A DNA stretch of 64,000 nucleotides, from positions 17,661 through 81,660 of the forward strand of contig JACPIN010000001.1 in NCBI GenBank assembly GCA_016188065.1. Direction: 5' to 3'. Shown here piece by piece: positions 1,050-56,781 of the stretch. The notes beneath the pieces were generated by a model, which worked only from the letters and a program-made list of their open reading frames with translations, was not told where the DNA came from and did not search any database. Origin of the DNA: Candidatus Woesearchaeota archaeon. GTDB lineage: Archaea; Nanobdellota; Nanobdellia; SCGC-AAA011-G17; ARS1403. Position 1 is the stretch's first letter. Every line of letters begins with the position of its first letter. The translations under genes and the position numbers were made by a program.

Positions 1050-1051
1050 TT

Positions 1052-14439: not shown

Positions 14440-14554
14440 ATCTTACTTTCTTACAATAAGAATTTCTTACTTATAAATGTTTCGCTCTTAATCAACGATG
14501 AGAAAACATTTAAAAGACATGCTATCTATCAATTTCATAATGTTAAAAACATCA

Positions 14555-16309: not shown

Positions 16310-16316
16310 AAAATCA

Positions 16317-16601
16317 ATGCAGATAGACCGGCAATTAATAGAAAAAGTAGCAAAAAATGCAAGATTGAAGTTGACAGAGCAGGAAATAAAAGAATTTCTT
16401 CCAGAACTAAAAGATATCATAGCTTATTTCTCTGAAATAGAAAAAGCACCAACAAGCAATTTGCTTCCGTCATTCCATCCGATAGAAATCAAAAATATAA
16501 CTAGAGAAGATATTCCAAAAGAAGGTTTAAAGCAGGAAGAAGCATTACAAAATACAAAGCATAAGCAAGATGGTTACTTCAAAGGCCCAAAAACAATATG
16601 A
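16317..16601 (+). CDS. gatC: Asp/Glu-tRNA amidotransferase subunit C
   Basis: 94 aa. LTEQEIKEFLPELKDIIAYFSEI is a GatC pattern. Located between aspS and gatA. Confidence 0.8.
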   Translation: MQIDRQLIEKVAKNARLKLTEQEIKEFLPELKDIIAYFSEIEKAPTSNLLPSFHPIEIKNITREDIPKEGLKQEEALQNTKHKQDGYFKGPKTI

Positions 16602-16951
16602 AAGAAAAACAAAAGTTTATCCTAGTATTTTTATTGACTATCTTAATAACAAGGATGATTATCTTTTTTATCCCTAGAACAAATTTTATATACACAGATC
16701 AATTTCATCATTCATTTATAGGTATAATTCTGTTAATCATTTATATTTTCATAAGAAATCAGCATCTATTAGCCATTTTATTAGGATTAATAGTAGACCA
16801 GATAACCTCTGCTCCATTTTATATTACAAGTTTATTTAATTATAATTTCGTAGAAAAATCATTCTGGAGTTATTGGTCAAACTATTCAGTTATCTCAACA
16901 GTGTTCGCAATAATAGTCTCAATCTACTTGATTAAAAAGTTACACAGGTGA
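16598..16951 (+). CDS. hypothetical membrane protein
   Basis: 117 aa, 3-4 TM helices. It overlaps gatC by ATGA. Confidence 0.3.
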   Translation: MKEKQKFILVFLLTILITRMIIFFIPRTNFIYTDQFHHSFIGIILLIIYIFIRNQHLLAILLGLIVDQITSAPFYITSLFNYNFVEKSFWSYWSNYSVISTVFAIIVSIYLIKKLHR

Positions 16952-16954
16952 TAT

Positions 16955-17752
16955 ATGTATCTATCAAAAAAGAAAAAAATTTCCTACAATTATATAAACA
17001 AAGATTCAAAAAAGCCAGTATTAGTTTTCTTGCATGGGCTTGGAGCAAATTCAACAACGTGGAAAGGGGTTATAAGCAACCTGAAAAATAAAAACTTGCC
17101 AATACTATATCAGGATTTAAGAGGTCATGGTAAAAGCGAAATCTTTAGTAATTATGAACTTGAAGAATTTGCAAAGGATTTAAATGAAATTTTAAAAAAA
17201 GAAAAAATAAAAAAAATTATTTTGATAGGTCACAGCTTAGGGGGTATGATCTCACTAGTTTTTTATAAATTATTTAAAAATAAAGTAAGAAAAATAATTT
17301 TAATAGATACAACCTATAAAAATCCCGTACCTGTATGGTATCGTTATTTTTTTTATGTGATTGACAAGTCAATGACGAAAATAATCAACAAAATACATCT
17401 TCTAAAAAAGTCCCTAAATAAATACAGAGATTTTTATCAATTAAAAAACCAGCCAAATTTTTCAATTGTGCTAAAAACGATGTTTTACAGAAGAGATAAA
17501 GTCCAATTAAAGTGTATAAAAAACTTAACAAATTTTGATGCCACAAATATAATCAAATCCATTGAGATTCCAACATTAATCATAGGAAGCAAATATGATG
17601 AATTATTCCCTCCAAAAATACAAAAAGAAATGCATAAATACATAAAAGCAAGCAAATTAGAAATAATGAAAGGGACCCATGCAATTATTATAAAAAATCC
17701 AGATATAATTTCAAGAGAAATTTCGAGCTTCATAAAAGATGAAAATCAATGA
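16955..17752 (+). CDS. alpha/beta-hydrolase
   Basis: VLVFLHGLGAN, GHSLGG (GxSxG), and a C-terminal H region. Confidence 0.7.
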   Translation: MYLSKKKKISYNYINKDSKKPVLVFLHGLGANSTTWKGVISNLKNKNLPILYQDLRGHGKSEIFSNYELEEFAKDLNEILKKEKIKKIILIGHSLGGMISLVFYKLFKNKVRKIILIDTTYKNPVPVWYRYFFYVIDKSMTKIINKIHLLKKSLNKYRDFYQLKNQPNFSIVLKTMFYRRDKVQLKCIKNLTNFDATNIIKSIEIPTLIIGSKYDELFPPKIQKEMHKYIKASKLEIMKGTHAIIIKNPDIISREISSFIKDENQ

Positions 17753-19085
17753 ATATCTAGAAAAAGTAAAATCAAAAGAAATCTCCGTAGTTAAGACAGT
17801 AGAAAAAATTCTTCAGGAAGCAAAAAACTCGCCAAACCATTTTACAGCAATCTCAAGATCATATGCATTAGAGCAGGCAGAAAAAATAGAAAAAAATCCA
17901 GAAGGAAGATTAGCAGGCCTTCCAATTTCAGTTAAAGACGGTGTTTGTGTAAAAAATATAGAATCATCAGCAGGCTCGGAAATATTGAAAAACTACAGGC
18001 CTCCGTTTTCAGCTACTGTAATCAACAAATTAGAAAAAGAAGGGGCAATCATCATAGGAAAAACATCCCAGGATGAATTTGGTTTTGGAGGATTCTCAGT
18101 GAACACAAAAAAGATTCCAAAAAACCCTCATGATTTAGCAAGATCCTGTGGAGGAAGCTCAGGTGGAGCAGCAGGTTTTACATCATTCGCAACGCAGCCG
18201 CATATCGCATTGGGAGAATCTACAGGGGGAAGCATAGCAAATCCAGCATCTTTCTGCGGAGTGGCAGGATTAACTCCAACTTATGGCTTAGTTTCAAGAT
18301 ATGGTTTAATTGATTACGCTAATTCTCTAGATAAGATAGGGACTATTGCAAAAACCGTATCAGATGCTTTCCTAGGTTTATATCATATAGCAGGCTACGA
18401 CGAAAAAGATTCAACTTCATTGCCTCAAAAAATGCTTCAAGAAAAAAAAGTAAAAAAAATAGCAGTCATAAAAGAATCATTAAATGTAGATAAAGAAATA
18501 AAAGATATTATTTTAAGTAAATTAAAAAACTATGATACGATCTCGCTTCCATCGATAAAAAAGTATTCTCTTCCAGCATATTATCTAATAGCCTTGTCAG
18601 AAGCATCAACAAATCTGGCAAAGTATTGTGGCTTAAGATATGGTCAGACTCTTCCATTACAAGGAGGTTATAATGAATTTTTCACAGAAGTCAGAAGCAA
18701 GTATTTCTCAAAAGAGGCAAAGCGCAGAATTATCCTAGGAACTTTCGCAAGAATGTCGGGTTTCAGGGATGCCTATTATCTTAAAGCTTTAAAGGCAAGA
18801 ACACTAATAATTAAGGAATACAAGAAAGCATTCAAGAAATATGATATTCTAGTTTCCCCAACTATGCCAGTCACAGCTCCAAAGTTTTCAGAAATAGAAA
18901 AATTATCTCCATTAGAAAATTATATGATGGATATTTTAACAGTGGGTCCAAATCTAGCAGGTCTTCCCCACTTATCTCTAAATGCGGGCTTCAAAAACAA
19001 GCTTCCAGTTGGAATCATGCTAACAGCAAACCATTTAGAAGAGGAAAAATTAAGGGCTTTAGGTGAGGAAGTTGAGAATGACTGA
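17739..19085 (+). CDS. gatA: Asp/Glu-tRNA amidotransferase subunit A (amidase)
   Basis: Amidase signature GGSSGGAAG, a Ser-cisSer-Lys region, 448 aa. Confidence 0.9.
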   Translation: MKINEYLEKVKSKEISVVKTVEKILQEAKNSPNHFTAISRSYALEQAEKIEKNPEGRLAGLPISVKDGVCVKNIESSAGSEILKNYRPPFSATVINKLEKEGAIIIGKTSQDEFGFGGFSVNTKKIPKNPHDLARSCGGSSGGAAGFTSFATQPHIALGESTGGSIANPASFCGVAGLTPTYGLVSRYGLIDYANSLDKIGTIAKTVSDAFLGLYHIAGYDEKDSTSLPQKMLQEKKVKKIAVIKESLNVDKEIKDIILSKLKNYDTISLPSIKKYSLPAYYLIALSEASTNLAKYCGLRYGQTLPLQGGYNEFFTEVRSKYFSKEAKRRIILGTFARMSGFRDAYYLKALKARTLIIKEYKKAFKKYDILVSPTMPVTAPKFSEIEKLSPLENYMMDILTVGPNLAGLPHLSLNAGFKNKLPVGIMLTANHLEEEKLRALGEEVEND

Positions 19086-19515
19086 TCACATAGCAATAAT
19101 GAAAAAATCCTGGAATTTAACAGAAAAAATACTAACAAGAGAAAAAACCATAGAATCGAGATGGTACAAAAACAAATATCCTCCCTGGAATAAAATCAAA
19201 CCTGGAGAAACAATTTACTTCAAAAATTCTGGAGAACCTGTTACAATAAAGACTGAAGTAGAAAAAGTTTTACAATTTTCAGATTTAAACAAAAACAAAG
19301 TCGAAGAAATATTAGAAAAGTATGGAGCAGAAGATGGAATTAAAAAAGAAAAGATTCAAGAATTTTTTAGTTTATTCAAAGATAAAAAATATTGTATTCT
19401 AATATATTTAAGAAATCCAGAAAAGATAATCCCTTTTGGAATAAACAAGAAAGGTTTCGGATTAATGTCCGCATGGTTGTGCGTAGATAATATTGAGAGG
19501 TTAAAAATAAATTAA
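19078..19515 (+). CDS. hypothetical small protein, possibly ASCH/PUA-like
   Basis: The start overlaps the gatA stop (ATGA). KTIESRW...KPGETIYFK weakly resembles an ASCH beta-barrel. Confidence 0.3.
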   Translation: MTDHIAIMKKSWNLTEKILTREKTIESRWYKNKYPPWNKIKPGETIYFKNSGEPVTIKTEVEKVLQFSDLNKNKVEEILEKYGAEDGIKKEKIQEFFSLFKDKKYCILIYLRNPEKIIPFGINKKGFGLMSAWLCVDNIERLKIN

Positions 19516-19519
19516 TAAA

Positions 19520-19568
19520 ATTTCAACTGACATACTTGCCATATACCCGCACAGGGTTTATAAACAAA
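19520..19568 (+). promoter_or_regulatory. conserved ~49-bp upstream element plus TATA (copy 1)
   Basis: ATTTCAACTGACATACTTGCCATATACCCGCACAGGGTTTATAAACAAAA is about 88% identical to 28997-29045. The TTTATAAA box sits about 25 nt upstream of the ATG at 19587. Confidence 0.55.
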
Positions 19569-19586
19569 AAATAATCAAAATTTAGC

Positions 19587-21629
19587 ATGAAATCGACAGA
19601 ATATATTACAGAAATAGACATAGGGGATATGCCTTACTTATCCAGGGGAATAAGAACTTATTTAGGATATGGACTTTTAGACACTAAAAAAATAGGGTTA
19701 TATCATGGTTTGGTTGGAAATTGGGAGTGCGGATCAAACCTTCCAAATAAAGAGAATTGGAATAGAATTAAACAATTGGTAAAATCCTCTGGAAAGTCTT
19801 ATGATGAGCTAATAGGATTAGGGAAGAAGAATTTTGGAGATTTGATAGGAGAGCTGTCAACAAAATCCAAAATACCAGAACAAATTTTTCTGAGATATGT
19901 AATATCAAAATGTCTCCATTTGAATTCGTCAAAAAAATTGGAAGACATTAAAAAAGGTAAGAGTAACTTATCAAAGAAAACAAAAAAGAAAGTATTAGAG
20001 ATATGGAAATATATTGAAGAGAATCAAGATAAAGATCCTAGGAGGATTATTATAGATTTACAAAGGAGATCAATTTTCTCGGATAGAAATCTTTTCTTAA
20101 AGATATTATTTTCAGGGTATATAAAGAGTCAAAAAAAAATCCTCGAAGATATCGGTATAAACTTCAGTAGTGGGTACATTAGTTCAATGTTTCATGATAG
20201 AAGACCCGTACCAAACATATTAATAAAAAAATTAAAAATGAATAATCCAAAAACAATATCAGAGATAGAAGAAAAAATAAATAGTAAAGATTCAAGAATT
20301 CATCAACAATGGCAGAGAGTGTCAAGATATAATTCAGTAATAGATTTACATTATAAGAACGAGGAATTTGAAGAAAAAGTTTTCAATATCATAGACAAGA
20401 TAGGGAAATACACAGTCAAAAATGGAATTGTTTCAGATAATGGTTTTAACTATATTGGAGAAGTGGATATAATCAGTAAAATAAATGGAAAAACAATTTT
20501 CTTTCTTTGCAAAAATACTAATAGTAGAAAATTAATTAACATAAAAAGGGATATAGTTAAGAAATCAATATTATTGCAGAAATACATTAATCCATATAAA
20601 ATTATTTTGGTTACCTCTTGCCTAGTAAGCAAAAAGGATTATTTTGAAAGAAACAAACTCTTAGTAATAGATAAGAAGAAACTATATAAGATACAAAATA
20701 ATCTAGAAGGCTTAGTTGAATTTGTTAAAAACAAAGGAAACTATCGCAGAACTAAAGAAAAAATAGATTTTGGAAGAGAAATCCCCACTATACTAAAAAA
20801 ATACAAATTATCCAAATACCAATTAGGCTCATTATTAAACATGAATGGAGGATATCTATCAAAAATTATCAAGACCGGCACAGAATTAAATAAAACAAGC
20901 AAACTAAAAAAGAGACTAGAAAAATTCCTTAAAGAATCAAAAAACAAAACAATAAGAGAGGTGCATCTATTATCAAACAGAAAGATACACCTAAAAAAGG
21001 AGGAATTTATTCTAAAGTATGTAAGGAAGAAACTAGGATTAAGTCAACAAAAGGTTTCAAAAGATCTAAAAACAAACCCTTCCAATATTGGAAATCTAGA
21101 AAGGGGCTTAGTAAAGAGAATAAAATTCAAACATACATATATACAATATTTAAAGTCGTTTAATAGTTATAATAAACTCAAAAAACAAGGAGAAAAAGAA
21201 TTTGTAAATTATAAGAAAAAATGGAATCACTTACCGAAATCTGGAAAAATAACAAAGATAAGGGACGAGCCAGTAAGAGGAAGAGAATTAGAAGAATTTA
21301 CAACAAAAATATTAGAAAATAACGGATTTTTTGTAATTAGGAACGTAGTTGTTACAAATAAAGACTTAACACTAAAACAAGAAATAGATATTTATGCAAA
21401 AAGAAAAAATAGGGAAATCGTTATAGAATGCAAAGATACTAAGATGTCAACAAAATGGCAAGATATTTCATATATCCTTAAAGATATAAAAACAGAAGTT
21501 CCTATTGATGAGGTAATATATTTGTCTCCACACATAACAAAACTAGGAAAAGATATACTTAAAGAGATAGGAATCATAGGATTAACCACGAAAGAATTAA
21601 AGAACTATTTGTGTGGTGGATCGTCATGA
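19587..21629 (+). CDS. large Lys-rich protein with HTH motifs and a C-terminal PD-(D/E)xK nuclease-like domain
   Basis: 680 aa. XRE-like HTH segments (LSKYQLGSLLNMNGGYLSKII; LGLSQQKVSKDLKTNPSNIGNLERG). The C-terminal ...EEFTTKILENNGFFV...QEIDIYAK...IVIECKD is a D...ExK core of restriction-endonuclease-like fold. Confidence 0.45.
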   Translation: MKSTEYITEIDIGDMPYLSRGIRTYLGYGLLDTKKIGLYHGLVGNWECGSNLPNKENWNRIKQLVKSSGKSYDELIGLGKKNFGDLIGELSTKSKIPEQIFLRYVISKCLHLNSSKKLEDIKKGKSNLSKKTKKKVLEIWKYIEENQDKDPRRIIIDLQRRSIFSDRNLFLKILFSGYIKSQKKILEDIGINFSSGYISSMFHDRRPVPNILIKKLKMNNPKTISEIEEKINSKDSRIHQQWQRVSRYNSVIDLHYKNEEFEEKVFNIIDKIGKYTVKNGIVSDNGFNYIGEVDIISKINGKTIFFLCKNTNSRKLINIKRDIVKKSILLQKYINPYKIILVTSCLVSKKDYFERNKLLVIDKKKLYKIQNNLEGLVEFVKNKGNYRRTKEKIDFGREIPTILKKYKLSKYQLGSLLNMNGGYLSKIIKTGTELNKTSKLKKRLEKFLKESKNKTIREVHLLSNRKIHLKKEEFILKYVRKKLGLSQQKVSKDLKTNPSNIGNLERGLVKRIKFKHTYIQYLKSFNSYNKLKKQGEKEFVNYKKKWNHLPKSGKITKIRDEPVRGRELEEFTTKILENNGFFVIRNVVVTNKDLTLKQEIDIYAKRKNREIVIECKDTKMSTKWQDISYILKDIKTEVPIDEVIYLSPHITKLGKDILKEIGIIGLTTKELKNYLCGGSS

Positions 21630-22987
21630 AGATAGGAATAGAGGCGCATATCCAGCTCTCAACTCTCAGTAAAATCTTTTGTTCTTGTCCAACATCTGGC
21701 TCAGAAAATCCAAATACTCTCACTTGTCCTACATGTTTGGGATTACCAGGTTCAAAGCCAGTTTTAAATAAAGAAGCGCTACATCAAGCAATAAAAGTAG
21801 CTCTCGCTTTAAATTGCTCAATGCCAACAGAAACTTTTTTCTCTCGTAAGAACTACTTTTTCCCAGATTTACCAAAGTCATATCAAATCTCCCAGTATGA
21901 AATCCCGATAGGGATAAATGGAAAATTAGAGAATATAAGAATGAGAAGGATTCATTTAGAAGAAGATCCAGGAGCATTAATTCATAAAGGCAACACAACT
22001 TTAATCGACTATAACAGATCAGGGATTCCTTTAATAGAAATTGTAACAGAGCCAGATTTTAAATCTCCCAATGAAGTTCGTTTGTTTCTAAGAAAATTAA
22101 TCACAATTCTAGAATATTTAAGCATCTACACCAGAAAGTCAGAAGCCACTATGAAAGCAGATGCAAATATCTCGACAACAGGAGAAAAAGTAGAAATAAA
22201 AAACATAACAGGGCTAAAGGAAATTGAACGCGCTTTGGAATATGAAGCAGCAAGGCAGAAAAAAGAGCCAGCTGAACAGCAAGAAACTCGCGGCTGGAAT
22301 TCAGAAAAAGGAATCACTTTTCTACAAAGAACAAAAGAGGAAGAAAGTGATTATGGGTATATCTTCGATTCTGATTTGCCAAAGATAGAAATTTCAAAAA
22401 GTCTACAAGAAGAAATTAAGAAACAAATTCCAGAATTATTTTTAGAAAAAGTTTCAAGATTCAAAACGCAATATAAGCTGCAGGCAGAGGATGCAGAAAC
22501 ATTGGCAGCAGAAAAAGAACTAGCAGAATTATTCGAGCAAGTAGCAACAAATATAGATCCTTTATTAGCAGCAAAATGGCTTAGAAGAGATTTGATGAAA
22601 GTTCTGCATTACAATAAAAAAGAATTGAAAGAAATAAAAATAGATGCCATGCACATTATCGAATTATTAACATTAGTAAAAGAAAGAAAAATAAATGATG
22701 CAACCGCAAAAGAGCTTCTAATAAAATTAATTGAAAAGCCATTCTCTCCAAGAGAGCAGGTAAAAAAACATAGTTTAGAAATGCTTTCTTCAGAAACAGA
22801 AATAGAAGATATGTGTAAAGAAGTAATAAAAAATAATAAAAGTGTTGTAGAAGATTACAAAAAAGGAAAGCAGGAAGCACTGCATTATTTAATCGGACAG
22901 GTTATGCGCTTGTCAAAAGGAAAGGCAGATCCAAAAGAAACAGAAAAAATATTGAAGAGATTATTGCAAAAAACTGTAGTATCCTAA
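21611..22987 (+). CDS. gatB: Asp/Glu-tRNA amidotransferase subunit B
   Basis: MKIGIEAHIQLSTLSKIFCSCPT is a GatB N-terminus, followed by the cradle domain and a YqeY-like tail. 458 aa. Confidence 0.9.
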   Translation: MWWIVMKIGIEAHIQLSTLSKIFCSCPTSGSENPNTLTCPTCLGLPGSKPVLNKEALHQAIKVALALNCSMPTETFFSRKNYFFPDLPKSYQISQYEIPIGINGKLENIRMRRIHLEEDPGALIHKGNTTLIDYNRSGIPLIEIVTEPDFKSPNEVRLFLRKLITILEYLSIYTRKSEATMKADANISTTGEKVEIKNITGLKEIERALEYEAARQKKEPAEQQETRGWNSEKGITFLQRTKEEESDYGYIFDSDLPKIEISKSLQEEIKKQIPELFLEKVSRFKTQYKLQAEDAETLAAEKELAELFEQVATNIDPLLAAKWLRRDLMKVLHYNKKELKEIKIDAMHIIELLTLVKERKINDATAKELLIKLIEKPFSPREQVKKHSLEMLSSETEIEDMCKEVIKNNKSVVEDYKKGKQEALHYLIGQVMRLSKGKADPKETEKILKRLLQKTVVS

Positions 22988-22989
22988 AT

Positions 22990-23433
22990 TCATTTATATT
23001 TGGGCTTTAATTCATTTAACAGCCTTTTAACTCTTTGAATGAATTCTTCTGCAATTGATAAATTATGCTCAGCAATGTCTTTAGAGTATACGTAGTGATA
23101 ATCTGCATCTTCTCTTGATGACATCGCCGCATTAAAGTCATTAATAAATCTCATCTCAAGTTTTCCTTTTTTATTTAATTCTTCTAAAACAACCCTCACA
23201 GCAAAATGCCTTTTTTCTCTATAGCCGAGTTCAAATAAAACCGCCCTTGCAGCATGAAAAAGGGAATAATAAGATTTGACAATGCCCCACTTAAAGTCCC
23301 CTTCTTCAAATGCCTTTTTTGCACTTTCCAGGTCATAATAGGCTTCATTTATCTCTTTCTGAACAAGTTTCTCATCGACATTAATCTTTTGCAGGATCCC
23401 TTTCTCCAAACAATCATTTATGTCCATCAGCAC
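22990..23433 (-). CDS. HEPN-domain protein (partner of the upstream nucleotidyltransferase)
   Basis: 147 aa helical protein with the ...ELGYREKRHFA region (R-x-H-like HEPN motif). It overlaps the MNT gene. Confidence 0.5.
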   Translation of the reverse strand: MLMDINDCLEKGILQKINVDEKLVQKEINEAYYDLESAKKAFEEGDFKWGIVKSYYSLFHAARAVLFELGYREKRHFAVRVVLEELNKKGKLEMRFINDFNAAMSSREDADYHYVYSKDIAEHNLSIAEEFIQRVKRLLNELKPKYK

Positions 23434-23975
23434 AGCCTTATTTTATCTTTTTCAACCCTTTCATAAAAAGCGGCATCCTTTTTTGAGAACTGAGACCATT
23501 CCAGTGGTGTAAAAGAAATAAATTTTATTTCTCTCCCTATTTGCCTCGATATCCTATCAAGATCAGGAAAAATTTGCTCCTTTTTTATTTTCCCGATTAT
23601 TAACAAGTCGATATCACTGCTTTCCACATCATCTCCTCTTGACGAGCTTCCATAGAGATAAATCTCAATGCCATATTTATTTCCCAAGAGATTAATCTTA
23701 TTCAGAATTAACAGGTTATCCAGAACTTTAAACTGTTTAACTATAGAATTATTTTTATTAAGCTGATAAATCTTATTTAATCCTATTTTCTCCATTGTTA
23801 TTAAATTTTCCTTCAAAAGAAACCTCAGATATTTTGTCAGAGTGGCTTTGGCTATTTTAACACTCTTCTTCAAATTTGTATATGAAATCTGGCTTCTCGG
23901 ATTCCTAATAAAGTATTTCAGAACCCTAAGTAACGCTCTATTTCCAAGTTCATCTAATTGAACCATATGTATCAA
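23427..23975 (-). CDS. wHTH-fused minimal nucleotidyltransferase (MNT)
   Basis: An N-terminal winged helix is followed by the NTase motif YLYGSSSRGDDVESSDIDLLI (GS...DxD). Confidence 0.65.
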   Translation of the reverse strand: MIHMVQLDELGNRALLRVLKYFIRNPRSQISYTNLKKSVKIAKATLTKYLRFLLKENLITMEKIGLNKIYQLNKNNSIVKQFKVLDNLLILNKINLLGNKYGIEIYLYGSSSRGDDVESSDIDLLIIGKIKKEQIFPDLDRISRQIGREIKFISFTPLEWSQFSKKDAAFYERVEKDKIRLC

Positions 23976-24060
23976 TTAGTTGATAATAGGGATACTTATT
24001 TAAACCTTTTGGTTCAAATTATTAGAACAAGATTTAACTTAATAATATAAGTTTTACAAA

Positions 24061-26952
24061 TCACTCTAATCTTTTCAATTCCTCTTTTAATCTCTCTTTC
24101 TCTTCTCCTTTAGCATTTAAATATTTCTGCGCCAGCTCCAAAAATTTATTATAAGAATTCTTCTCAAGTATAACAACTATCTCATCTCTAACGCATTTAT
24201 TCGGATCTTGGCTAGAAGTTCTAAATCCGAATGGGCAACAAATCTCAGGCTTGTTTACTAAAACACAATTAAATCTGCTTGAGCTTCCAGTAGTAGTATC
24301 TTGAACAACATTCCCTGTAACATCTGTGAAACCAACATCCCAAACTGTGCTTCCAGTAACAGCAGGAATTTCAGAACTGCTTTTAACACCTGAAACAGCC
24401 AACACAGAATCCTTGCTAATCTTTTTTCCTTTATATTCAAACACAACAGGAAGATTAACACCGCTTCCCTTTCCAGCATTTACCTTAACATTAAATTCAA
24501 CCTCGCATTTCTCTCCATACCCCAAATTCTTGCAAGCTTTACTTTTCTCTTTAGCATCCAAGCATTTCTTACAATCCTTCCCGCCACAATCGACATATTC
24601 TTCATCCTTATTTTGTGTTCCATCCTCGCAATGATTAGGCTCAGTAAAAATATTCTTAACAGTTTCTACTATTCTCTCAACAGCAGTTTTCTCCTCTGGC
24701 TTTTTATCGCCGCAAGTTTGCCCCTGCTCAATATTTCCGTAGACACAATTGTTCAAGCAATTACACCCGTCAACATCATCGCATTTTACATTGCAGTTAT
24801 TTAAGCTGCTTTTTGCACCATCGCCTAGAACCTCACTACATACATCTCTTCCAAATTCAAGTGCAAACATAAAGAAATCCTCTAAGTCTATTTTTCCACT
24901 ACCATCCAAATCAAATTTCTCAGTTTCATTATTTATTCCCTTGCCAAATTCATTTGCAAACAAGAAATAATCATCCATATCCACCTTCCTGTTTTTGCTA
25001 AAGTCTACTCTCTTATTCGGTGTACATTCAAGAACATCAGAAGTCTTGGCTAAAGCTCCAGAAGTAACTTTAGTGGCTCTACATTTACTTCCCTTGCCAA
25101 ATTCGTCTGTAAAAATAAAAAAATCATTAAAGTTAATCTCATTGTTGGAATCCATATCATACTTTTTTGTCTCTGCAACAGTAGGTTTCCCAAAATTTTC
25201 TTTAAACAAATTAAAGTCGCCCATATCAAAACAATCGTTATTATCAAAGTCACCTTTTAAAGTTGGGCGAGGAGGTTCTGCAGGTTTTGTAGGCTGCTCT
25301 ACTCGTTTAACTGAACTGCATTTAACTATCAACCTTCCTTTCTTATCAATTCCAGGACAAGGATCTGGTTTGCAGACATTGTTATCGAAATAATATTCAA
25401 CTTCTTTCTCTCCTACCCCCCCATCTATAATTCCGCTTCCTGCTCTTTGAATCTTCTCAACTGAACAAGAAGATTTTCTGACATTATCAGCAGGATCCTG
25501 AGGACAATAATAATAAGACTGAATTTTTTCAATTACACTGCCTGCAGGGCAATTAAATTTTGCACGTCTGTTTCCTTCCATAGCATCTTTAGCCGAAAGA
25601 AACCCACCATCAGGAGTTGTTTCTATCTTTTCATTTACACCTAGATAAAGACCAGCGAAAATAAAAAAATCTTCAAAATCAATATCCCTATCTCTATCCA
25701 AATCAAACTTAGCATTTTCCTGCACTACTTGCTTTGCAAAATTCTGAGAAAATAATTTAAAATCTTCAACATTAACCACATTATTATTGTCAAAATCAGC
25801 ACCGACTTTCGGATATTCAATCCCGCACTTTGCAATTAACTTTCCCTTCTTCACAAATCCTGGACAAGGATCTCCGCATATTTCATTGCTAAAGGTATAT
25901 CTTACTGAGAGACTTCCTTTTCCACCGACATTTAACCCCAACCCGCCATAAGTGTTAAGGGGGCAAAATTTAGATTTCCCCAATAAAGCAGCATTGTTAT
26001 CTCCACTTTTATCCCTATCAGATCTATCTTCAACATTCAAACAGTAATAATAGGCTTGCAATTCAGTAATAATTTTCCCAGAAGGACAAAAAACATCAGC
26101 ATCATAATTTCTATCAGCAATACCACTTTCAACGACGTCACCCCCAGTTAGCAGAACAATAGGTTCATCCTTTTTAGGCAGAGGAAGAGTTTCAATAGTT
26201 GGACATACTTGATATTTAATTTCCTCAAGGTTAAAGGGGTTGCATTTATTCACATCTTTACAGCTTCTAGATTGGACAATTCCTGGTTTACATTCACTCC
26301 ATACCCCACAATCTGTAAATTTGGGAACGCAACATCCAGTCACTGTGCATATACCAGACAAAAGACAAGGATCACTACCGGTTTTCCAACATTTCTTATC
26401 CTGTCCAAGTTGAGAGCAAGCAAGATCACCGCCTGTTTCTCTAACAGGATAATTACAAACTCCTCTTCCAAAATCCATGCTTGGAGACACTAATCCAATG
26501 CTACTTCCAGTACACCAACCACCAAAATCACCACAACTTGGAATCTTAGATGGAACAGGTTTAGTAGAAGATAGTGATTCCTGCGAAGGGAGGGTTGGCG
26601 GAGGAGAAGTTGTTTGAGTGCTTTCAGATTTTACACATCCAGTAGCAGTACATTTTTCATTTTCTCCACATGGTCTTCCCACTGTAGCCCAACATCTTCT
26701 TTGATCATTCTTAGGAATAGTTCTTTTTGCACAGGCCTCAGAGTCATCTTTGACTTCTTGTTTATAATAACAATATCCTCCTCGAAGATAAAGTTGTGTC
26801 TGCCCGCCATTGTCATGTATAGAACAATATTCGTCCTCTTCAAACTCGCAATTAGTTCCAGCTCCTACATTAACAGAAAAATACACACTAACTAAAAACA
26901 AAATAATTAGACTAAAACAAATTCTCTTTCCATAAAATTTTCTATTTATCAT
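24061..26952 (-). CDS. secreted Cys-rich protein with at least 3 dockerin-like double-repeat modules
   Basis: 963 aa with a signal peptide. Repeated modules of the form DFDNNNVVNVEDFKLF...FDLDRDRDIDFEDFFIF (dockerin Ca-binding loops). Repeated GDPCPG...KCG motifs. Confidence 0.6.
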   Translation of the reverse strand: MINRKFYGKRICFSLIILFLVSVYFSVNVGAGTNCEFEEDEYCSIHDNGGQTQLYLRGGYCYYKQEVKDDSEACAKRTIPKNDQRRCWATVGRPCGENEKCTATGCVKSESTQTTSPPPTLPSQESLSSTKPVPSKIPSCGDFGGWCTGSSIGLVSPSMDFGRGVCNYPVRETGGDLACSQLGQDKKCWKTGSDPCLLSGICTVTGCCVPKFTDCGVWSECKPGIVQSRSCKDVNKCNPFNLEEIKYQVCPTIETLPLPKKDEPIVLLTGGDVVESGIADRNYDADVFCPSGKIITELQAYYYCLNVEDRSDRDKSGDNNAALLGKSKFCPLNTYGGLGLNVGGKGSLSVRYTFSNEICGDPCPGFVKKGKLIAKCGIEYPKVGADFDNNNVVNVEDFKLFSQNFAKQVVQENAKFDLDRDRDIDFEDFFIFAGLYLGVNEKIETTPDGGFLSAKDAMEGNRRAKFNCPAGSVIEKIQSYYYCPQDPADNVRKSSCSVEKIQRAGSGIIDGGVGEKEVEYYFDNNVCKPDPCPGIDKKGRLIVKCSSVKRVEQPTKPAEPPRPTLKGDFDNNDCFDMGDFNLFKENFGKPTVAETKKYDMDSNNEINFNDFFIFTDEFGKGSKCRATKVTSGALAKTSDVLECTPNKRVDFSKNRKVDMDDYFLFANEFGKGINNETEKFDLDGSGKIDLEDFFMFALEFGRDVCSEVLGDGAKSSLNNCNVKCDDVDGCNCLNNCVYGNIEQGQTCGDKKPEEKTAVERIVETVKNIFTEPNHCEDGTQNKDEEYVDCGGKDCKKCLDAKEKSKACKNLGYGEKCEVEFNVKVNAGKGSGVNLPVVFEYKGKKISKDSVLAVSGVKSSSEIPAVTGSTVWDVGFTDVTGNVVQDTTTGSSSRFNCVLVNKPEICCPFGFRTSSQDPNKCVRDEIVVILEKNSYNKFLELAQKYLNAKGEEKERLKEELKRLE

Positions 26953-28439
26953 CCTAAACTTACCTTAACATCTCCGCATCCATCTTTCTCAGAGCAAATA
27001 AAGCTAGCTTTAACAGTAACTTCCTCATTGCTATTAACATTTATCGCGCCTTCCGCATTATTTACAAAAACACTAGGCTCGCAAGAGCTGCTTGGAATTC
27101 TCTGCTTCTCCCAAACATTTCCACTCACACAAGCCTCTCTGCCATCACCGCATAACCCAGTTCTTCTAACCTCTCCAGGGATACAGCTGCATATGCTTTC
27201 ATCTATTTCACCATTGCAATTATCATCTATTTTATTAGCACAAAATTCGCCGCTATTTTTCAGCAAAGTTACCTGCTCAACTTGCTTTCCTGTACAAGCA
27301 CATCCCTGTAAATTTTCATCGATAACACCATTGCAGTTATTATCAACCCCATCGCAAATTTCTTTAGCATTAGGATTTATCTTTCCATTGAAATCATTGC
27401 AGTCATCCCCTCCAATTAATTTGCAGAAAGCCCTTTTATTATCTCTAAACCCATCTCCATCAGCATCGCAGGTTGCAGTGCAGTCCAAATCTTTCCCATC
27501 GCAGTTCTCATCTATCCCATTATTATTATTAACATCAGGATTGCATCTCTCAGTAGCACTAGGATTTATCAAAGCATTATTATCATTGCAGTCAGTTCCG
27601 CCTTGAAAAGCATTTGAATCATATCCGTCTCTATCATTATCTAATTCTTGCCCAGTTTTTAAGCTGCATTCACAATATCCTGCAAAGAAAGTGCTTTTCA
27701 AATCCCCAAGCAATCCGGGAACTGCCATGTTAGCGCATATTTTATCAGGAATTATTTGAGAAGCACCGGCAAAAACACATCCTATTTTTTCAATAACGGT
27801 TTTTTCCTTAGGAATTTCACCGACAGGCTTTTCAGTTACCTTAACATCTTTCTGCAATTTCTCAGCTCCAGGCTTTACACACTCTCCTAATCTCCCTTTG
27901 CACTCAGCTAAATTTTCATTGGTGCAGCATATCTGCTCACTGCTCGGGCATCCGCAAAATCCAGGACCGGCACATCTTGGAACAATCTTTTGATTGCTGC
28001 AGAACAAGGGCTTGTCATTCGCATTATTCGTAAATTTAGAAACACATTCATTATTTTTAATAGCAGTCCCTTTATAATCACAGCTCAATAAATTCTCAAA
28101 GTTTAACACGAAATCTATCCGGTTAGGATTCTGGTTCACATCTCTAACAACAAAGTAATAATCTCCAGGCTCATGTATCTTCAGCGAATCAAAAGAAACT
28201 GGATCACAAACACCATTAGAATTACAGCTCAACAAAGAAGATGCTTTAAATTTTTCTATAGGATCAGCCCCGCCTTGATATTTCCCCTTGTAGAATTCAG
28301 CAGTTTTAGAAAAATCTCCTTTAATTGTAATTTGAATATTTCCTTTAGCAAGAACATATTGAATATTCAAAGTAGACTGGCTAAATGATGAAGAAGCTAT
28401 CAAGAGAAAAATTAAAATTAAAATTAACTTGCTGAGCAA
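26949..28439 (-). CDS. secreted Cys-rich protein with MopE-like putative metal-binding repeats
   Basis: 496 aa with a signal peptide. Repeats of DCNDxNxxINPxAxExCDGxDNxCxGxIDE type. Confidence 0.5.
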   Translation of the reverse strand: MLSKLILILIFLLIASSSFSQSTLNIQYVLAKGNIQITIKGDFSKTAEFYKGKYQGGADPIEKFKASSLLSCNSNGVCDPVSFDSLKIHEPGDYYFVVRDVNQNPNRIDFVLNFENLLSCDYKGTAIKNNECVSKFTNNANDKPLFCSNQKIVPRCAGPGFCGCPSSEQICCTNENLAECKGRLGECVKPGAEKLQKDVKVTEKPVGEIPKEKTVIEKIGCVFAGASQIIPDKICANMAVPGLLGDLKSTFFAGYCECSLKTGQELDNDRDGYDSNAFQGGTDCNDNNALINPSATERCNPDVNNNNGIDENCDGKDLDCTATCDADGDGFRDNKRAFCKLIGGDDCNDFNGKINPNAKEICDGVDNNCNGVIDENLQGCACTGKQVEQVTLLKNSGEFCANKIDDNCNGEIDESICSCIPGEVRRTGLCGDGREACVSGNVWEKQRIPSSSCEPSVFVNNAEGAINVNSNEEVTVKASFICSEKDGCGDVKVSLG

Positions 28440-28936
28440 TTTCTCACCTCTATTTTTTTCTTTTTGTCAACGCAAAATTGAAATCCCTCTCCAGATTTTA
28501 CTCTCGGAACAACTTCCAAAAATTGTATTGCTTTATATTTTGTAATATCCTCGCCTAATAAGCCTTTTGCTTCATAAGTCGGTCTTGATATGCCTATAGC
28601 CTTCACCTCATAAGCATTTAACCGAGTATCATATAAAAAACTTCCTACGCCCCAATCATTTTCATTGGGATGAAAAAACCTGACAGCAAACCCATCTTTG
28701 AAATCAATCTTTTTCTCATTCTTAACTTTTACAATTACTAATCCCCCTTCACAATAAGCATCTTCAATAAAGAACTTCACCTCATCGCAATTAGAAAACC
28801 CCTCAAAGACCTTTTGTCCTTTTTCAAATCCAGATTCAACTGTTTCTCTAGTTAAATTAAAAATAACAACAAGCATAGTAACAACAAACACAATTAATAA
28901 AACAGAAGCTATTAACGGAGAGATACCTCTTTTCAT
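28424..28936 (-). CDS. archaeal type IV pilin-like protein (class III signal peptide)
   Basis: The N-terminus MKRGISPLIASVLLIVFVV is a canonical (K/R)G(I)SP prepilin motif followed by a hydrophobic helix. 170 aa. Confidence 0.6.
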   Translation of the reverse strand: MKRGISPLIASVLLIVFVVTMLVVIFNLTRETVESGFEKGQKVFEGFSNCDEVKFFIEDAYCEGGLVIVKVKNEKKIDFKDGFAVRFFHPNENDWGVGSFLYDTRLNAYEVKAIGISRPTYEAKGLLGEDITKYKAIQFLEVVPRVKSGEGFQFCVDKKKKIEVRNCSAS

Positions 28937-28996
28937 ACAAACCTTTAAAAGATTAAAATATATAAAACTTTACAAGGGCCTATAGTACATAGTGCA

Positions 28997-29045
28997 ATTT
29001 CAACTGACACACTTGCCATATACCCAGACAGCATTTATAAACAAA
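28997..29045 (+). promoter_or_regulatory. conserved ~49-bp upstream element plus TATA (copy 2)
   Basis: ATTTCAACTGACACACTTGCCATATACCCAGACAGCATTTATAAACAAAAG has the same architecture as 19520-19568. TTTATAAA sits about 25 nt upstream of the ATG at 29064. Confidence 0.55.
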
Positions 29046-29063
29046 AGAAAATAGTTCTTAATT

Positions 29064-29792
29064 ATGAAAATCACGCCAGAATTATCAGAAATAAGTGGGA
29101 TCCATAGTGGAGATGGACACTTAAGGAGGGATAAAGAACTCGAAATTAGCGGGAGCTTTGAAGAAAAAGAATATTATGACACGAGGGTCATTCCTTTATT
29201 TAATAATTTCTTTAATTTATCTATAAAGGGAAGGTTTTTTACAAGTAAAGGAACATATGGTTTTTGGGTAGTCAACAAAGAAATAGGAAATACATTAAAG
29301 GAAATAGGATTCCCTTCAGGTAACAAAACCAAAACTGTAAAAGTCCCTAACATCATATTGAAGTCTAACAACAGTTCTATTAGAAGATCCTTCCTAAGAG
29401 GTTTATTTGACACAGATGGTTGCATGAGTTTTAATAAAAGAATTTATAATAAAAATCATTTCAAAAAAACCAAAAATTTCTATCCTACCATACTAATCGT
29501 GAGTATATCCAAAAATCTGATTAAGGGAGTAGATTTATTATGTAAAAAAGAAGGTTTTGAATCAAAAGTATACCTCCACATACCAAAAAAGAAAACAGAA
29601 AACATCCGTTATATAATGCAAATATCTGGGGAAAAATCTCTTCTAGATTGGATGGAAAAAATCTCCCCTAAAAATCAAATAAAAGTTTCTAGATTTAAGG
29701 TCTGGGAAAAATTTGGGCACTGTCCATCAAAAGCAACCTATAAAGAAAGACTAGAAATACTTAAAAGCCAGCAAATTAAAGATTTCTTGTAG
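29064..29792 (+). CDS. double-motif LAGLIDADG homing endonuclease-like protein (free-standing)
   Basis: Two LAGLIDADG motifs: ISGIHSGDGHL and FLRGLFDTDGCM. 242 aa. The stop codon overlaps the first nt of the tRNA. Confidence 0.7.
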   Translation: MKITPELSEISGIHSGDGHLRRDKELEISGSFEEKEYYDTRVIPLFNNFFNLSIKGRFFTSKGTYGFWVVNKEIGNTLKEIGFPSGNKTKTVKVPNIILKSNNSSIRRSFLRGLFDTDGCMSFNKRIYNKNHFKKTKNFYPTILIVSISKNLIKGVDLLCKKEGFESKVYLHIPKKKTENIRYIMQISGEKSLLDWMEKISPKNQIKVSRFKVWEKFGHCPSKATYKERLEILKSQQIKDFL

Positions 29793-29894
29793 GGCCTGTA
29801 GTATAACCTGGATAGTATATTCGGCTTCAAAGATTAACACTTTGTTAACTTGGCCAAGGACCGAAAGATCTCGGTTCAAATCCGGGCAGGCCCG
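29792..29894 (+). tRNA. tRNA-Arg(TCG) with a 29-nt intron at non-canonical position 35/36 (anticodon assignment tentative)
   Basis: Acceptor GGGCCTG/CAGGCCC, D-stem GTAT/GTAT (two G.U pairs), anticodon stem TTCGG/CCGAA, T-arm CTCGG-TTCAAAT-CCGGG. The insert 29829-29857 forms a relaxed BHB (H = GGCT/GGCC, plus a TTAACA/TGTTAA hairpin), giving loop CTTCGGA. Confidence 0.65.
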
Positions 29895-30143: not shown

Positions 30144-30314
30144 AATTATATCCTGGATAAAAGAGAATTGGCTAATAATCCTTGTATTAATTATAATCTT
30201 ATTCTTAATTTCAAGAATACAGGTTAGATAAAAAGTATAAAAATGCCAAAGGAAACTCAAGAAGAAATAACAGCAAGAACAAATTTTATAAAGAGGAACA
30301 TGCCCATATAAACT

Positions 30315-30512
30315 ATGACCTTCCAAATCCAAGAATATAAAGAGAATCTAGAAATATTTCAAAAAAGGATAGAATTATTAATTGGAAATCGATTAAGATT
30401 AAATGACAAAATCAGAAATGCGGTTGCTATACAAGATGCTGCTAGATCAAAAATAAAAGGATGGGATGGAACAAAAGAAATCAGAAAATGGAGAGAAAGA
30501 AGAGCAAGTTAG
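30315..30512 (+). CDS. putative antitoxin upstream of the PIN toxin
   Basis: 65-aa charged helical protein overlapping the start of the PIN gene. Confidence 0.3.
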   Translation: MTFQIQEYKENLEIFQKRIELLIGNRLRLNDKIRNAVAIQDAARSKIKGWDGTKEIRKWRERRAS

Positions 30513-30930
30513 AAACCGTGTCATTGATAGTTCTGTTGTAATTAAATGGTTTTCTGAAGAAGAAAGTACAGAAAAGGCATTGAAAATAAGAGAAGATTTC
30601 ATTAAGGGAAAAAACATAATTGCAGTGCCAGATATACAAATTTATGAGATAGCAAATGCACTGAGATACAACAAGAAACTTTCAAAAGAAGAGGTTATAA
30701 ATTACACAAAAAGTTTAATTGATATTGGAATAATCATAATGATTCCGACAGAAGATACGATTAGGTCAGCTGTAGAAACAGCATTTCAGCATGATATTAC
30801 AATTTATGATGCATATTTTGTATCATTAGCCAAAGAATTAGATTTCGATTTTATAACAGCCGATGAAAAGTTTTATAGAAAAATAGAAAAGTTAAAATCT
30901 ATAAACTTACTTAAGAATTTGAGGATATAA
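30466..30930 (+). CDS. PIN-domain (VapC-like) toxin
   Basis: VIDSSVVIKWF...IYDAYFVSLAKELDFDFITADEKF shows PIN acidic residues. Confidence 0.6.
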   Translation: MEQKKSENGEKEEQVRNRVIDSSVVIKWFSEEESTEKALKIREDFIKGKNIIAVPDIQIYEIANALRYNKKLSKEEVINYTKSLIDIGIIIMIPTEDTIRSAVETAFQHDITIYDAYFVSLAKELDFDFITADEKFYRKIEKLKSINLLKNLRI

Positions 30931-30932
30931 GC

Positions 30933-32366
30933 ATGTCAAAAGAAACGCAAGAAGGGATCACAGTAAAGAAAGAAGAGAATTTCTCAGAGTGGTACACTCA
31001 AATAATTCAGAAAGCGGATCTGGCAGATTATTCAAAAGTAAAAGGATGCATGGTAATCAAGCCAAATGCTTATTTCATATGGGAGCAGATACAGGATTAT
31101 TTCAATAAAAGGTTAAAACTATTAAAAGTGAGAAACGCATATTTCCCATTATTCATTCCAGAATCATTTTTCCAAAAAGAAGCAGAGCATGCCCAAGGAT
31201 TTAAGCCGGAAGTTGCATGGATTGAAAAAGAGGAAGAGGGAGAAAGATTAGCAGTAAGGCCAACATCAGAGACGGTAATATATGATTCATATTCAAAGTG
31301 GATTCGTTCTCATAGAGACTTGCCATTAAGAATTAATCAGTGGGCAAACATCGTTAGATGGGAAACGAAGGCAACAAGGTTATTTATCAGAACAAGAGAA
31401 TTTCTTTGGCAGGAAGGCCATTGTGTGTATGAAACAGAAGAGGAGTGTGATAAAGAGGCTGTGCAGTTTCTTAATGAATATAAAAAACTCTGCGAGGATC
31501 TTTTAGCGATTCCAGTAATAACGGGAAAGAAGTCAGAAAAAGAAAAATTTGCAGGAGCATACTACACATTAAGTATAGAATCAATAATGCCTGACGGCAG
31601 AGCCTTGCAGATGGGAACCTCTCATAATCTTGCTCAAAATTTTTCGAAATCATTTAATATAAAATTCCTGGATCAATCTGGAAAAGAAAAGTTGCCTTGG
31701 CAGAATTCGTGGGGGATCTCAACAAGATTAATAGGGGCATTGGCAATGTTCCATGGAGACGATAAAGGGCTTGTTTTGCCGCCTAAAGTAGCATTTTCAA
31801 AAATAGTCATCATCCCAATATTATTCAAAGAAACAGAAGAAAAAGTTTTGAAAAAAGCAAAGGAAATTGAAAATAAATTAAAAAAATATAACCCTATTTT
31901 AGATGATCGTAATTATTCTCCAGGCTGGAAATTCAACGAATGGGAATTAAAAGGCACCCCTATAAGATTAGAAATCGGGCCAAAAGAGATTGATAAAAAA
32001 CAGGTTGTTTTAGTAAGAAGGGACAATAACAAAAAAGAATTTGTAAAAATCTCTTCAATAACGAAAAAAATAGAAGAATCATTGGAAGATATGCAGAAGA
32101 ATATGCTGGAAAAGGCGCGAAAAGAAATGCAGTCTAAAGTAGTAAAAGTCAGCTCATTTGCAGAATTCCAAAAAGCAATCAAAGGTAAAAAAGCAGTTCT
32201 AGTTCCTTGGTGTGGATTAAGAAAATGTGAAGAGGAAATTCGAGAGAAATCAGATGGAGCAAAATCAATTAATATGCCATTTGACCAGCCAAAAGATCTC
32301 AAGGAAAAATGTTTCAATTGTAATGATATGTCATTAGGGTTGTGGTATTTTGCTAAATCATACTAA
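30933..32366 (+). CDS. proS: prolyl-tRNA synthetase (archaeal/eukaryotic type)
   Basis: Class II motifs, VRPTSETVIY, and a C-terminal Zn-binding domain ending ...GLWYFAKSY. 477 aa. Confidence 0.9.
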   Translation: MSKETQEGITVKKEENFSEWYTQIIQKADLADYSKVKGCMVIKPNAYFIWEQIQDYFNKRLKLLKVRNAYFPLFIPESFFQKEAEHAQGFKPEVAWIEKEEEGERLAVRPTSETVIYDSYSKWIRSHRDLPLRINQWANIVRWETKATRLFIRTREFLWQEGHCVYETEEECDKEAVQFLNEYKKLCEDLLAIPVITGKKSEKEKFAGAYYTLSIESIMPDGRALQMGTSHNLAQNFSKSFNIKFLDQSGKEKLPWQNSWGISTRLIGALAMFHGDDKGLVLPPKVAFSKIVIIPILFKETEEKVLKKAKEIENKLKKYNPILDDRNYSPGWKFNEWELKGTPIRLEIGPKEIDKKQVVLVRRDNNKKEFVKISSITKKIEESLEDMQKNMLEKARKEMQSKVVKVSSFAEFQKAIKGKKAVLVPWCGLRKCEEEIREKSDGAKSINMPFDQPKDLKEKCFNCNDMSLGLWYFAKSY

Positions 32367-45369: not shown

Positions 45370-45957
45370 TTATTCCCAGAAATACGTCTTCTCAGCATCC
45401 TGTAAGAAATTTCTTCCGCCTTCCTCACTCAAACACTCATTGCTGATGCATAAATTGCTTTTACATTCATAACTGTTCTCACAGCTTCCTTCTTTCTGAA
45501 CTCTTAAAGCCTGGGTAAAGTCACAATATCTTCCAGCAACCCTCATGCCTACAGGCAGGCATTCTCCATTATAGCTGCATCCCTGGCTGCATTTTAGCCC
45601 CTCGCTCTTTTCTTTCATTTTGCAAACACCAAAGCCCCCCTCGTCAACGCATCCAAACTCGCAAAAGATTTCCTCAATCTTGCCATCGCTCCTAGTAGCA
45701 TCGCAATAATACTCTCCAAGCGTAGTCGAATTAACGCAAAAATCCCTTCTTGCTTTAGTTGGATCAAAGCTTCCAATGACATTGCCTCCAACCTCTGCTT
45801 GTACACCGGCATCAGTATCAACACAATCTACAATGTTGGAAGATGCCCTTCCAGTAAACATGCTGCTAAAACTTCCAGTTAGTCCAAGAATAAGTATAAT
45901 TGCAAAAACAAGAACAGAAATACCAATTAATTTCCCCTTCTCCATAATTTTAAGCAA
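45370..45957 (-). CDS. secreted Cys-rich protein
   Basis: Signal/TM N-terminus and 14 Cys residues in 195 aa. Confidence 0.35.
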   Translation of the reverse strand: MLKIMEKGKLIGISVLVFAIILILGLTGSFSSMFTGRASSNIVDCVDTDAGVQAEVGGNVIGSFDPTKARRDFCVNSTTLGEYYCDATRSDGKIEEIFCEFGCVDEGGFGVCKMKEKSEGLKCSQGCSYNGECLPVGMRVAGRYCDFTQALRVQKEGSCENSYECKSNLCISNECLSEEGGRNFLQDAEKTYFWE

Positions 45958-56767: not shown

Positions 56768-56781
56768 AGAATTTTGGATAA

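Follow-up and report, generated by a model that had tools for sequence, protein, structure and literature searches.

How do two genes for unrelated nuclease-type proteins, 9.5 kb apart on the same strand, come to have nearly the same 49 bp of DNA upstream of their start codons, and what might that DNA do? The question is raised by a stretch of 64,000 nucleotides (nt) of a Candidatus Woesearchaeota metagenome-assembled genome (MAG), positions 17,661 to 81,660 of the 86.6-kb contig JACPIN010000001.1, which we refer to as the window. Its genes include those with the NCBI locus tags HYV89_00275 and HYV89_00310, its G+C content is 34.6%, and its sequence has also been assembled out of several groundwater runs. 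One copy of the shared DNA (copy A) precedes gene X, which encodes a protein with helix-turn-helix (HTH) modules and nuclease-like domains, and the other (copy B) precedes a gene for a LAGLIDADG endonuclease. As set out below, the shared sequence is probably a cis-regulatory promoter element, that is, a candidate transcription-factor binding site by which two transcription units would be coupled.

Anatomy of the shared element

A preliminary description of the window had reported an element of about 49 bp ahead of both genes, with conservation reaching far past the transcription factor B recognition element (BRE) and the TATA box. Re-alignment bears this out: 19520-19568 and 28997-29045 are identical at 44 of 49 positions (89.8%), the maximal block (19519-19569 versus 28996-29046) at 46 of 51 (90.2%), and conservation is strongest in a 30-nt block at the upstream end. 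Both copies consist of the same parts in the same order, namely a 30-nt asymmetric box (AATTTCAACTGACAYACTTGCCATATACCC), an 8-nt variable spacer, TTTATAAA as the TATA box, 22 nt and the ATG:

19519..19548, plus strand: box of copy A, AATTTCAACTGACATACTTGCCATATACCC, 29/30 identical to copy B
19549..19556, plus strand: spacer of copy A, 8 nt (GCACAGGG), over the BRE position; 4/8 positions differ from copy B
19557..19564, plus strand: TATA box of copy A, TTTATAAA, 22 nt before the ATG at 19587
28996..29025, plus strand: box of copy B, AATTTCAACTGACACACTTGCCATATACCC, 28/30 identical in the orthologous promoter of a related genome (L008, see below)
29026..29033, plus strand: spacer of copy B, 8 nt (AGACAGCA), variable with respect to copy A
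29034..29041, plus strand: TATA box of copy B, TTTATAAA, 22 nt before the ATG at 29064

The copies differ at a single one of the 30 box positions and at half of the eight spacer positions, four of the five mismatches thereby falling into the spacer (permutation P ~0.03). As judged from the alignment this is a footprint pattern, with conserved blocks around free positions, whereas a fresh duplicate would be expected to differ evenly. The uneven distribution bears on a rival explanation, in which about 50 bp were copied from one locus to the other by recombination or gene conversion and no dedicated factor is involved. Such copying would account for a pair of copies and no more, on one strand at a distance of 9.5 kb and ~90% identical, and for the inclusion of a complete core promoter in the element; it fits poorly with a box that matches at 29/30 positions beside a spacer that matches at 4/8, and we consider it unlikely on this and on the comparative grounds given in the next section.

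A repeat search showed that weaker similarity of the two copies runs on into the coding regions (98 nt at 73%). Homologous coding starts, or a duplicated gene start, were considered and rejected, as the two downstream proteins are unrelated (BLASTP E = 0.26); the repeat is therefore non-coding DNA. Within the box we found no inverted repeat and hence no dyad symmetry, and inspection of the alignment by eye revealed a weak direct similarity between CTGACA and TTGCCA, 9 nt apart.

Within the window the element is confined to these two promoters. A 25-nt core, allowing up to 3 mismatches, has exactly two sites in the window and none in 100 dinucleotide-preserving shuffles, and the box is absent upstream of the other ~70 window genes, including those for ribosomal protein L15e, the aminoacyl-tRNA synthetases and ftsZ. 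Nor is there a box in the sequence that extends 2.35 kb past the left end of the window (L018).

Its downstream part, on the other hand, is ordinary. For promoter comparison the 70 nt upstream of every open reading frame (ORF) of the window were listed. A leaderless archaeal core promoter has an 8-bp A/T-rich TATA box centred ~26 nt upstream of a transcription start that lies at or next to the ATG, and many first genes of the window carry TTTAWAWA 22-30 nt before the ATG, often with GAAAG ahead of it; internal genes carry GGAGG ribosome-binding sites. Given the same spacing at so many first genes, we take the TATA box and its position to be those of an ordinary leaderless promoter in this organism. 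The likeness to leaderless promoters that had been noted earlier for the two copies holds, with the TATA centre ~26 nt upstream of the ATG in each. The start codons of X and of the LAGLIDADG gene are supported by homologues whose N-termini align from residue 1, and from this layout both genes are probably leaderless. At the BRE position both box promoters have ACAG, as against the GAAAG common in this genome. Relative to the predicted transcription start the box spans ~-38 to -68, and its 26-nt core (TTCAACTGACAYACYTGCCAWATACC, found also in L008 and L014, see below) ends 9 bp upstream of the TATA box.

Conservation of the box in related genomes

The closest orthologue of the LAGLIDADG protein (P0003, 81% identity) is encoded in L008, a sequence from a different groundwater metagenome, and the element is present in its promoter. 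Neighbouring proteins of the window and L008 organisms are 59-75% identical (about 70%), and the two are therefore clearly different species. Between them 28 of 30 box positions are identical, as are 33 of 38 from 29026 to 29063, and in the adjacent gene identity is 55% at four-fold degenerate sites and 67% at third codon positions. At a neutral identity of 0.55-0.67, the probability of at least 28 matches in 30 is 5e-6 to 7e-4. A linker of ~19 nt directly upstream of the box has been scrambled and includes an indel; on its far side the divergent promoter is perfectly conserved, making the box one of two footprints in the intergenic region of copy B. The box is thus conserved above the neutral rate (against four-fold sites) between unconstrained flanks (the scrambled linker), as is characteristic of a binding site, and by these sequence comparisons it is under purifying selection. 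Logan contigs that represent the same organism at strain level (L002-L007) are 99.97-100% identical to the window and are uninformative on constraint.

The second footprint belongs to the gene that faces away from copy B, which lies between the LAGLIDADG gene and a divergent surface-protein operon:

28424..28936, minus strand: membrane-protein gene, 170 aa (amino acids), pilin-like signal peptide, heading the surface-protein operon

The TATA box of this gene is at ~28957-28968, ~27 nt beyond the box, and the 30 nt around it are 100% identical in L008. The box of copy B could also act on this divergent promoter. We considered the 170-aa protein itself as a regulator and rejected it, since it is a pilin-like membrane protein.

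The spacers add a relative date to the two copies. The orthologous promoters of copy B and L008 have 7 of 8 spacer positions in common, versus 4 of 8 for copies A and B; judged by the free positions, A and B seem to have parted before the two species did, and still they have kept the box. On the sequence evidence, this spacer divergence argues against recent copying and for selection on the box at each locus, and together with the selective conservation of the box in L008 it weighs against the copying of a promoter without a dedicated factor.

When a relaxed pattern was run over the GTDB genomes, one per species, the single match lay in another Woesearchaeota MAG (L014, CAYIWL01). Here the 26-nt core is found with 0 mismatches to the consensus and is followed by 9 nt and then GATATAAA. 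Downstream of it are a 44-nt leader with a Shine-Dalgarno (SD) sequence and an operon of three tiny ORFs (~45, 36 and 33 aa), and beyond the box and the TATA box we found nothing common to L014 and the window. With a 44-nt leader and the distance to the TATA box fixed at 9 nt, the box keeps its register relative to the TATA box rather than to the ATG. The arrangement of core, 9 nt and TATA box is accordingly seen in copy A, copy B, L008 and L014, in three unrelated downstream gene contexts, and recurrence at a fixed core-promoter register before different genes is again what a binding site would show. A box that returns with different flanks, spacer and leader is also difficult to derive from one copying event between two loci of the window.

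Beyond these instances, profile and mismatch scans of the window and of L008, L009, L011 and L014-L016 found no further site within 7 mismatches of the 26-nt core. A strict 21-nt pattern had no match in the GTDB species-representative genomes or in IMG/VR, and the relaxed pattern had none in viral contigs. The sole strict-pattern match in JGI metagenomes (L001) was dismissed as a chance match, lying as it does inside a GC-rich bacterial coding region.

The surroundings of the L014 box deserve separate mention. At 910-1721 (minus strand) the box stands between a 110-aa winged-helix-like gene and the three SD-led tiny ORFs, one of which ends in CTHCGG, and an Orc1/Cdc6 gene is found 0.8 kb away; the region could be an integrated element or an origin-proximal region. 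Every Pfam match of the winged-helix-like gene is below threshold, and there is no convincing homologue of it among the ORFs of the window.

The Orc1/Cdc6 gene so near to the L014 box, and the 30-nt length of the box, which is that of a repeat of a clustered regularly interspaced short palindromic repeat (CRISPR) array, raise another class of explanation: that the box acts as an Orc1/Cdc6 origin-recognition box (ORB), or else as RNA (a leader, small RNA or antisense). We regard this class as highly improbable. ORBs come in several copies, usually inverted, on both sides of an AT-rich unwinding element that adjoins orc1/cdc6. No Orc1/Cdc6 gene is encoded in the window, and its boxes are single same-strand copies 9.5 kb apart, neither inverted around an AT-rich stretch nor part of a repeat array. 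As for RNA, neither strand of the box folds better than shuffled sequence (z -0.95 to +1.39), the predicted structures differ between copies, the three variable positions show no compensatory pattern, Rfam finds only tRNAs, and the box lies upstream of the TATA box, outside the predicted transcript. The structured-RNA, ORB and CRISPR-repeat readings were rejected on these grounds of folding, copy layout and gene content of the window.

The genes downstream of the box

The genes that would be governed from the two box promoters are the following:

19587..21629, plus strand: gene X, 680 aa, several Xre-type HTH modules and two PD-(D/E)xK-like nuclease domains (Pfam HTH_3, E = 1.9e-5)
21611..22987, plus strand: gatB (Pfam GatB_N and GatB_Yqey)
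29064..29792, plus strand: free-standing two-domain LAGLIDADG endonuclease gene, 242 aa (Pfam LAGLIDADG_3)
29792..29894, plus strand: tRNA-Arg(UCG) with a 29-nt intron (29829-29857) after position 35 (Rfam tRNA, 49 bits)

The earlier characterization of X as an HTH and PD-(D/E)xK nuclease-like protein holds by its family profile, which has HTH matches at about residues 7-50, 388-446 and 472-520 and invariant residues E262/D294 and E599/D601 in two PD-(D/E)xK-like domains. The C-terminal domain, by its sequence a putative nuclease domain of restriction-endonuclease-like fold, contains E569, the invariant D601 and IECK. The Hjc match of the window protein is sub-threshold (19.6 versus a Pfam cut-off of 21.1 bits), and other members of the family match Hjc (1.7e-6) and NERD (1.7e-9), as well as Mrr_cat and Card1. 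The family is rare, with 19 matches among 1.84 billion cluster representatives. Weak matches of X in PDB and PADLOC include controller proteins of restriction-modification (R-M) systems (C.BclI and 'control protein' models).

Copy A is set within an aspS-gatC-(117 aa)-hydrolase-gatA-ASCH-X-gatB cluster, with gatA/ASCH on its upstream and gatB on its downstream side, in agreement with the neighbours first described. The last 19 nt of X are also the first of gatB, and nothing promoter-like is seen in the 70 nt ahead of gatB, which is for both reasons probably co-transcribed from the copy A promoter. Homologues of X (570-680 aa, 26-40% identity) stand directly upstream of gatB in four genomes, and in three of these they overlap the gatB start:

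window: X 19587-21629 with gatB 21611-22987, overlapping
L015: 5001-8458, X homologue (40%) overlapping the gatB start
L016: 232-2559, X homologue (40%) between the gatA C-terminus and gatB
L017: 6001-9061, X homologue (26%) overlapping the gatB start

The gene on the upstream side of X differs among the four genomes, and the divergence of X tracks that of GatB (40/50%, 41/55% and 26/44%). As an observation on the gat genes in general, the window holds genes for an asparaginase resembling GatD and a protein resembling GatE, separated by that of a TrmB regulator (2882-3970, 5739-6464 and 6510-7916) as well as the complete aspS-gatC-gatA-gatB set (14498-22987), which places both archaeal routes of tRNA-dependent amidation within 20 kb; the lineage of this genome is known for small genomes.

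In DPANN archaea the LAGLIDADG protein has a family of at least 160 members, with a length of ~245 aa. The aspartates of its two motifs, D17 and D118 (G-D-G and T-D-G), are invariant in 25 sequences, and the nearest solved structures are intein and intron endonucleases (PI-PfuI and an intron-encoded endonuclease). Its gene is followed in order by the intron-bearing tRNA, as the preliminary description had it, a PIN toxin pair and proS. Because the first base of tRNA-Arg(UCG) is the last base of the LAGLIDADG stop codon, the two are possibly co-transcribed. The gene ends at or inside this tRNA gene in four Woesearchaeota genomes:

window: 29064-29894
L008: 121-951
L009: 6001-6880
L020: 78-875

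In L020 the LAGLIDADG ORF runs into the tRNA 5' end (GGGCCTGT...), and several other family members probably do likewise, judged by C-termini ending in GPV(A/M/V). The gene was not found to reside in an intron or intein, nor to have the patchy distribution of a transferred gene; it is free-standing and always 5' of tRNA-Arg(UCG). This catalytically intact family may represent an enzyme that has been domesticated, or else free-standing homing endonucleases with the tRNA-Arg locus as their specific site.

The intron of the tRNA was placed by alignment with the intron-less tRNA-Arg(TCG) of L009; its site is non-canonical and lacks a clean bulge-helix-bulge motif. ARAGORN called the same gene (29792-29894) a tRNA-SeC(tca) and another at 59337-59426 a tRNA-Pyl(cta), which would imply stop-codon suppressors; both calls were discarded as apparent artefacts of intron placement. 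The tRNA at 59337-59426 is probably a tRNA-Arg(UCU) with a 13-nt intron (59377-59389) at position 37/38.

A hint of horizontal transfer of the LAGLIDADG gene, in its 81% identity between the window and L008 against 40% for ProRS, did not hold up, as ProRS is the outlier and the other neighbours are at 59-75%. ProRS (window 30933-32366, L008 1072-2628) is 40% identical where flanking syntenic genes are at 59-81%, and the L008 protein is 41 aa longer; proS was probably replaced (xenologous) in one of the two lineages. Between tRNA-Arg and proS the window also has ~650 bases that L008 does not have (~30277-30926), which carry a 65-aa ORF and a PIN-domain gene (30466-30930) and look like an inserted toxin-antitoxin pair.

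The preliminary description had offered two readings, the shared end of a mobile cassette or the binding site of a dedicated regulator, and had called the positions of both genes insertion-like. For a cassette end, or an att-like recombination site that delivered both genes, speak their nuclease-like nature, the rarity and patchy distribution of X, and the placement of each immediately on the 5' side of a conserved translation gene. We nevertheless rate it as very unlikely. Neither copy is accompanied by a match at the gene 3' ends, a terminal repeat (inverted or direct), a target-site duplication, or an adjacent integrase or transposase, and the box had no matches in viral contigs. The positions turn out to be the usual sites of the two families, X before gatB and LAGLIDADG before tRNA-Arg(UCG) in four genomes each, and most of these relatives occupy the same sites without a box. 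X has diverged in step with GatB, and the LAGLIDADG protein (81%) roughly as its neighbours (59-75%), as expected of long residence rather than of a recent insertion. A fixed site beside a conserved gene is also to be expected from site-specific homing, and both genes may be 'selfish but old'. Of the two original readings it is the regulator binding site that gains, from the selection seen against L008, the instance in L014 and the lack of other copies in the window. Searches of PHROGs and PADLOC assigned no known virus or defence family to X, the LAGLIDADG protein or the L014 ORFs.

Proposed mode of action and candidate regulators

As a transcription-factor binding site, the asymmetric box of 26-30 bp, which abuts the BRE position, would be bound by a sequence-specific DNA-binding protein. 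This would bring two units under common control: X with the overlapping gatB, and the LAGLIDADG gene with the abutting tRNA-Arg(UCG). The bound factor might act as an activator that aids the recruitment of TATA-binding protein (TBP) and transcription factor B (TFB), or alternatively as a repressor that occludes the BRE. Activation is favoured because the box lies upstream of the BRE and TATA box without overlapping them and because the BRE is non-consensus.

Several points count against a regulatory site of this kind. Orthologous promoters from farther relatives (50-58% identity for LAGLIDADG, 26-40% for X) are without the box, with at most a trace of it in L020, and the box is therefore young and lineage-restricted. 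Four instances in three organisms, two of them orthologous, make for a thin motif definition and a thin regulon. Dimeric HTH and winged-HTH factors dominate archaeal regulation, and a box without dyad symmetry is unusual for a dimeric factor. Finally, the candidate regulators, the TrmB and AlbA_2 proteins named in the preliminary description among them, are linked to the box by proximity alone, and the preference for activation over repression draws on position only.

Known systems offer partial parallels. The upstream activating sequence (UAS) on which GvpE acts in haloarchaeal gvp promoters is described as 20 nt long with two conserved 8-nt portions, directly upstream of the BRE (PMC2241852). 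It resembles the box in size (about 20 nt versus 26-30 nt), in its place directly upstream of BRE and TATA box, in its restriction to few promoters, and in that it can lie between divergent promoters, as does copy B. It differs in that it has no sequence similarity to the box, the host here is a DPANN woesearchaeote and no gvpE-like gene is evident; the two-portion substructure of the box (CTGACA / TTGCCA) is weakly suggested.

Ptr2/Lrp-type upstream sites in Methanocaldococcus promoters are said, in the work of Ouhammouch and Geiduschek, to activate by TBP recruitment. They too lie upstream of core promoters with sub-optimal elements, which the box promoters match in having no GAAAG-type BRE; Ptr2 sites are, however, palindromic and paired, and the box is asymmetric and single.

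Both box promoters of this genome precede nuclease-type genes, and this suggests a special case of regulation through the box, namely that it is an operator bound by X or by the LAGLIDADG protein, the two nuclease genes being auto- and cross-regulated. An asymmetric site of 26-30 bp would suit a monomeric LAGLIDADG enzyme or a multi-HTH protein, and X has at least three Xre-type HTH modules and, as mentioned, weak matches to R-M controllers. The C-boxes of R-M controller (C) proteins are tandem palindromes of ~35 bp that overlap the bacterial -35 region, and the parallel with X is of an Xre-type HTH protein, linked to a nuclease, encoded directly downstream of a conserved operator-like sequence. 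X departs from these systems in that its HTH modules are fused to the nuclease, its promoter is an archaeal one, and it has no methyltransferase partner. For the LAGLIDADG protein there are precedents of homing-endonuclease-type proteins that bind a long asymmetric site in their own promoter: the homing endonuclease I-TevI represses its own promoter, and the LAGLIDADG-derived WhiA binds DNA without cutting it. However, I-TevI is of the GIY-YIG type and the catalytic residues are gone from WhiA, whereas the protein here keeps both catalytic aspartates and, in binding its own promoter, would risk cleaving it. Neither the flanking tRNA nor the gatB sequence showed any similarity to the box. The three tiny ORFs after the L014 box, moreover, encode neither X nor a LAGLIDADG protein, no homologue of either is visible in the available 4.9 kb of L014, and homologues of both elsewhere lack the box. 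A self-encoded operator therefore seems to us a minority possibility.

Other repeats in the window

A few further repeats were noted: a dispersed pair of 81 nt and ~85% identity (45993-46073 and 47902-47983), of which the first copy lies upstream of a 195-aa gene (45370-45957, minus strand) and the second near the 3' end of a 1815-aa ORF, upstream of a DUF2683/ParE-like pair; three 25-nt copies with 50-nt spacing (46092-46216) upstream of a nucleotidyltransferase/HEPN pair; two 52-nt copies, 96% identical with 58-nt spacing and an internal palindrome TAAGACA...TGTCTTA (56666-56775), upstream of 56257-56667 (minus strand); and an exact 69-nt tandem duplication in a promoter region (60393-60530).

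Implications

The box, a probable regulatory site, is lineage-specific and of an ordinary kind, a new instance of a known element type. To our knowledge, almost nothing has been learned about how transcription is regulated in DPANN archaea, an uncultured group in which few regulators can be recognised; a sharply bounded box under selection at a fixed TATA register offers something definite and inexpensive to test by binding assays and in vitro transcription. The associations of LAGLIDADG with tRNA-Arg(UCG) and of X with gatB may interest those who study homing endonucleases and tRNA amidation more than the box itself. If the regulatory role is confirmed, the box would tie two nuclease-type genes, and probably gatB and tRNA-Arg too, to one factor. 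Although speculative, and in our estimation rather improbable, it is tempting to picture X and the LAGLIDADG gene as long-resident, site-specific selfish nuclease genes 5' of gatB and tRNA-Arg(UCG) that now lead the transcription of these host genes, with the box as the operator by which one of them, most plausibly X with its Xre-type HTH array in the manner of an R-M controller, controls both. If this were true, the organism, a DPANN archaeon, would possess a small 'nuclease regulon' that regulates itself and is coupled to translation genes of the host.

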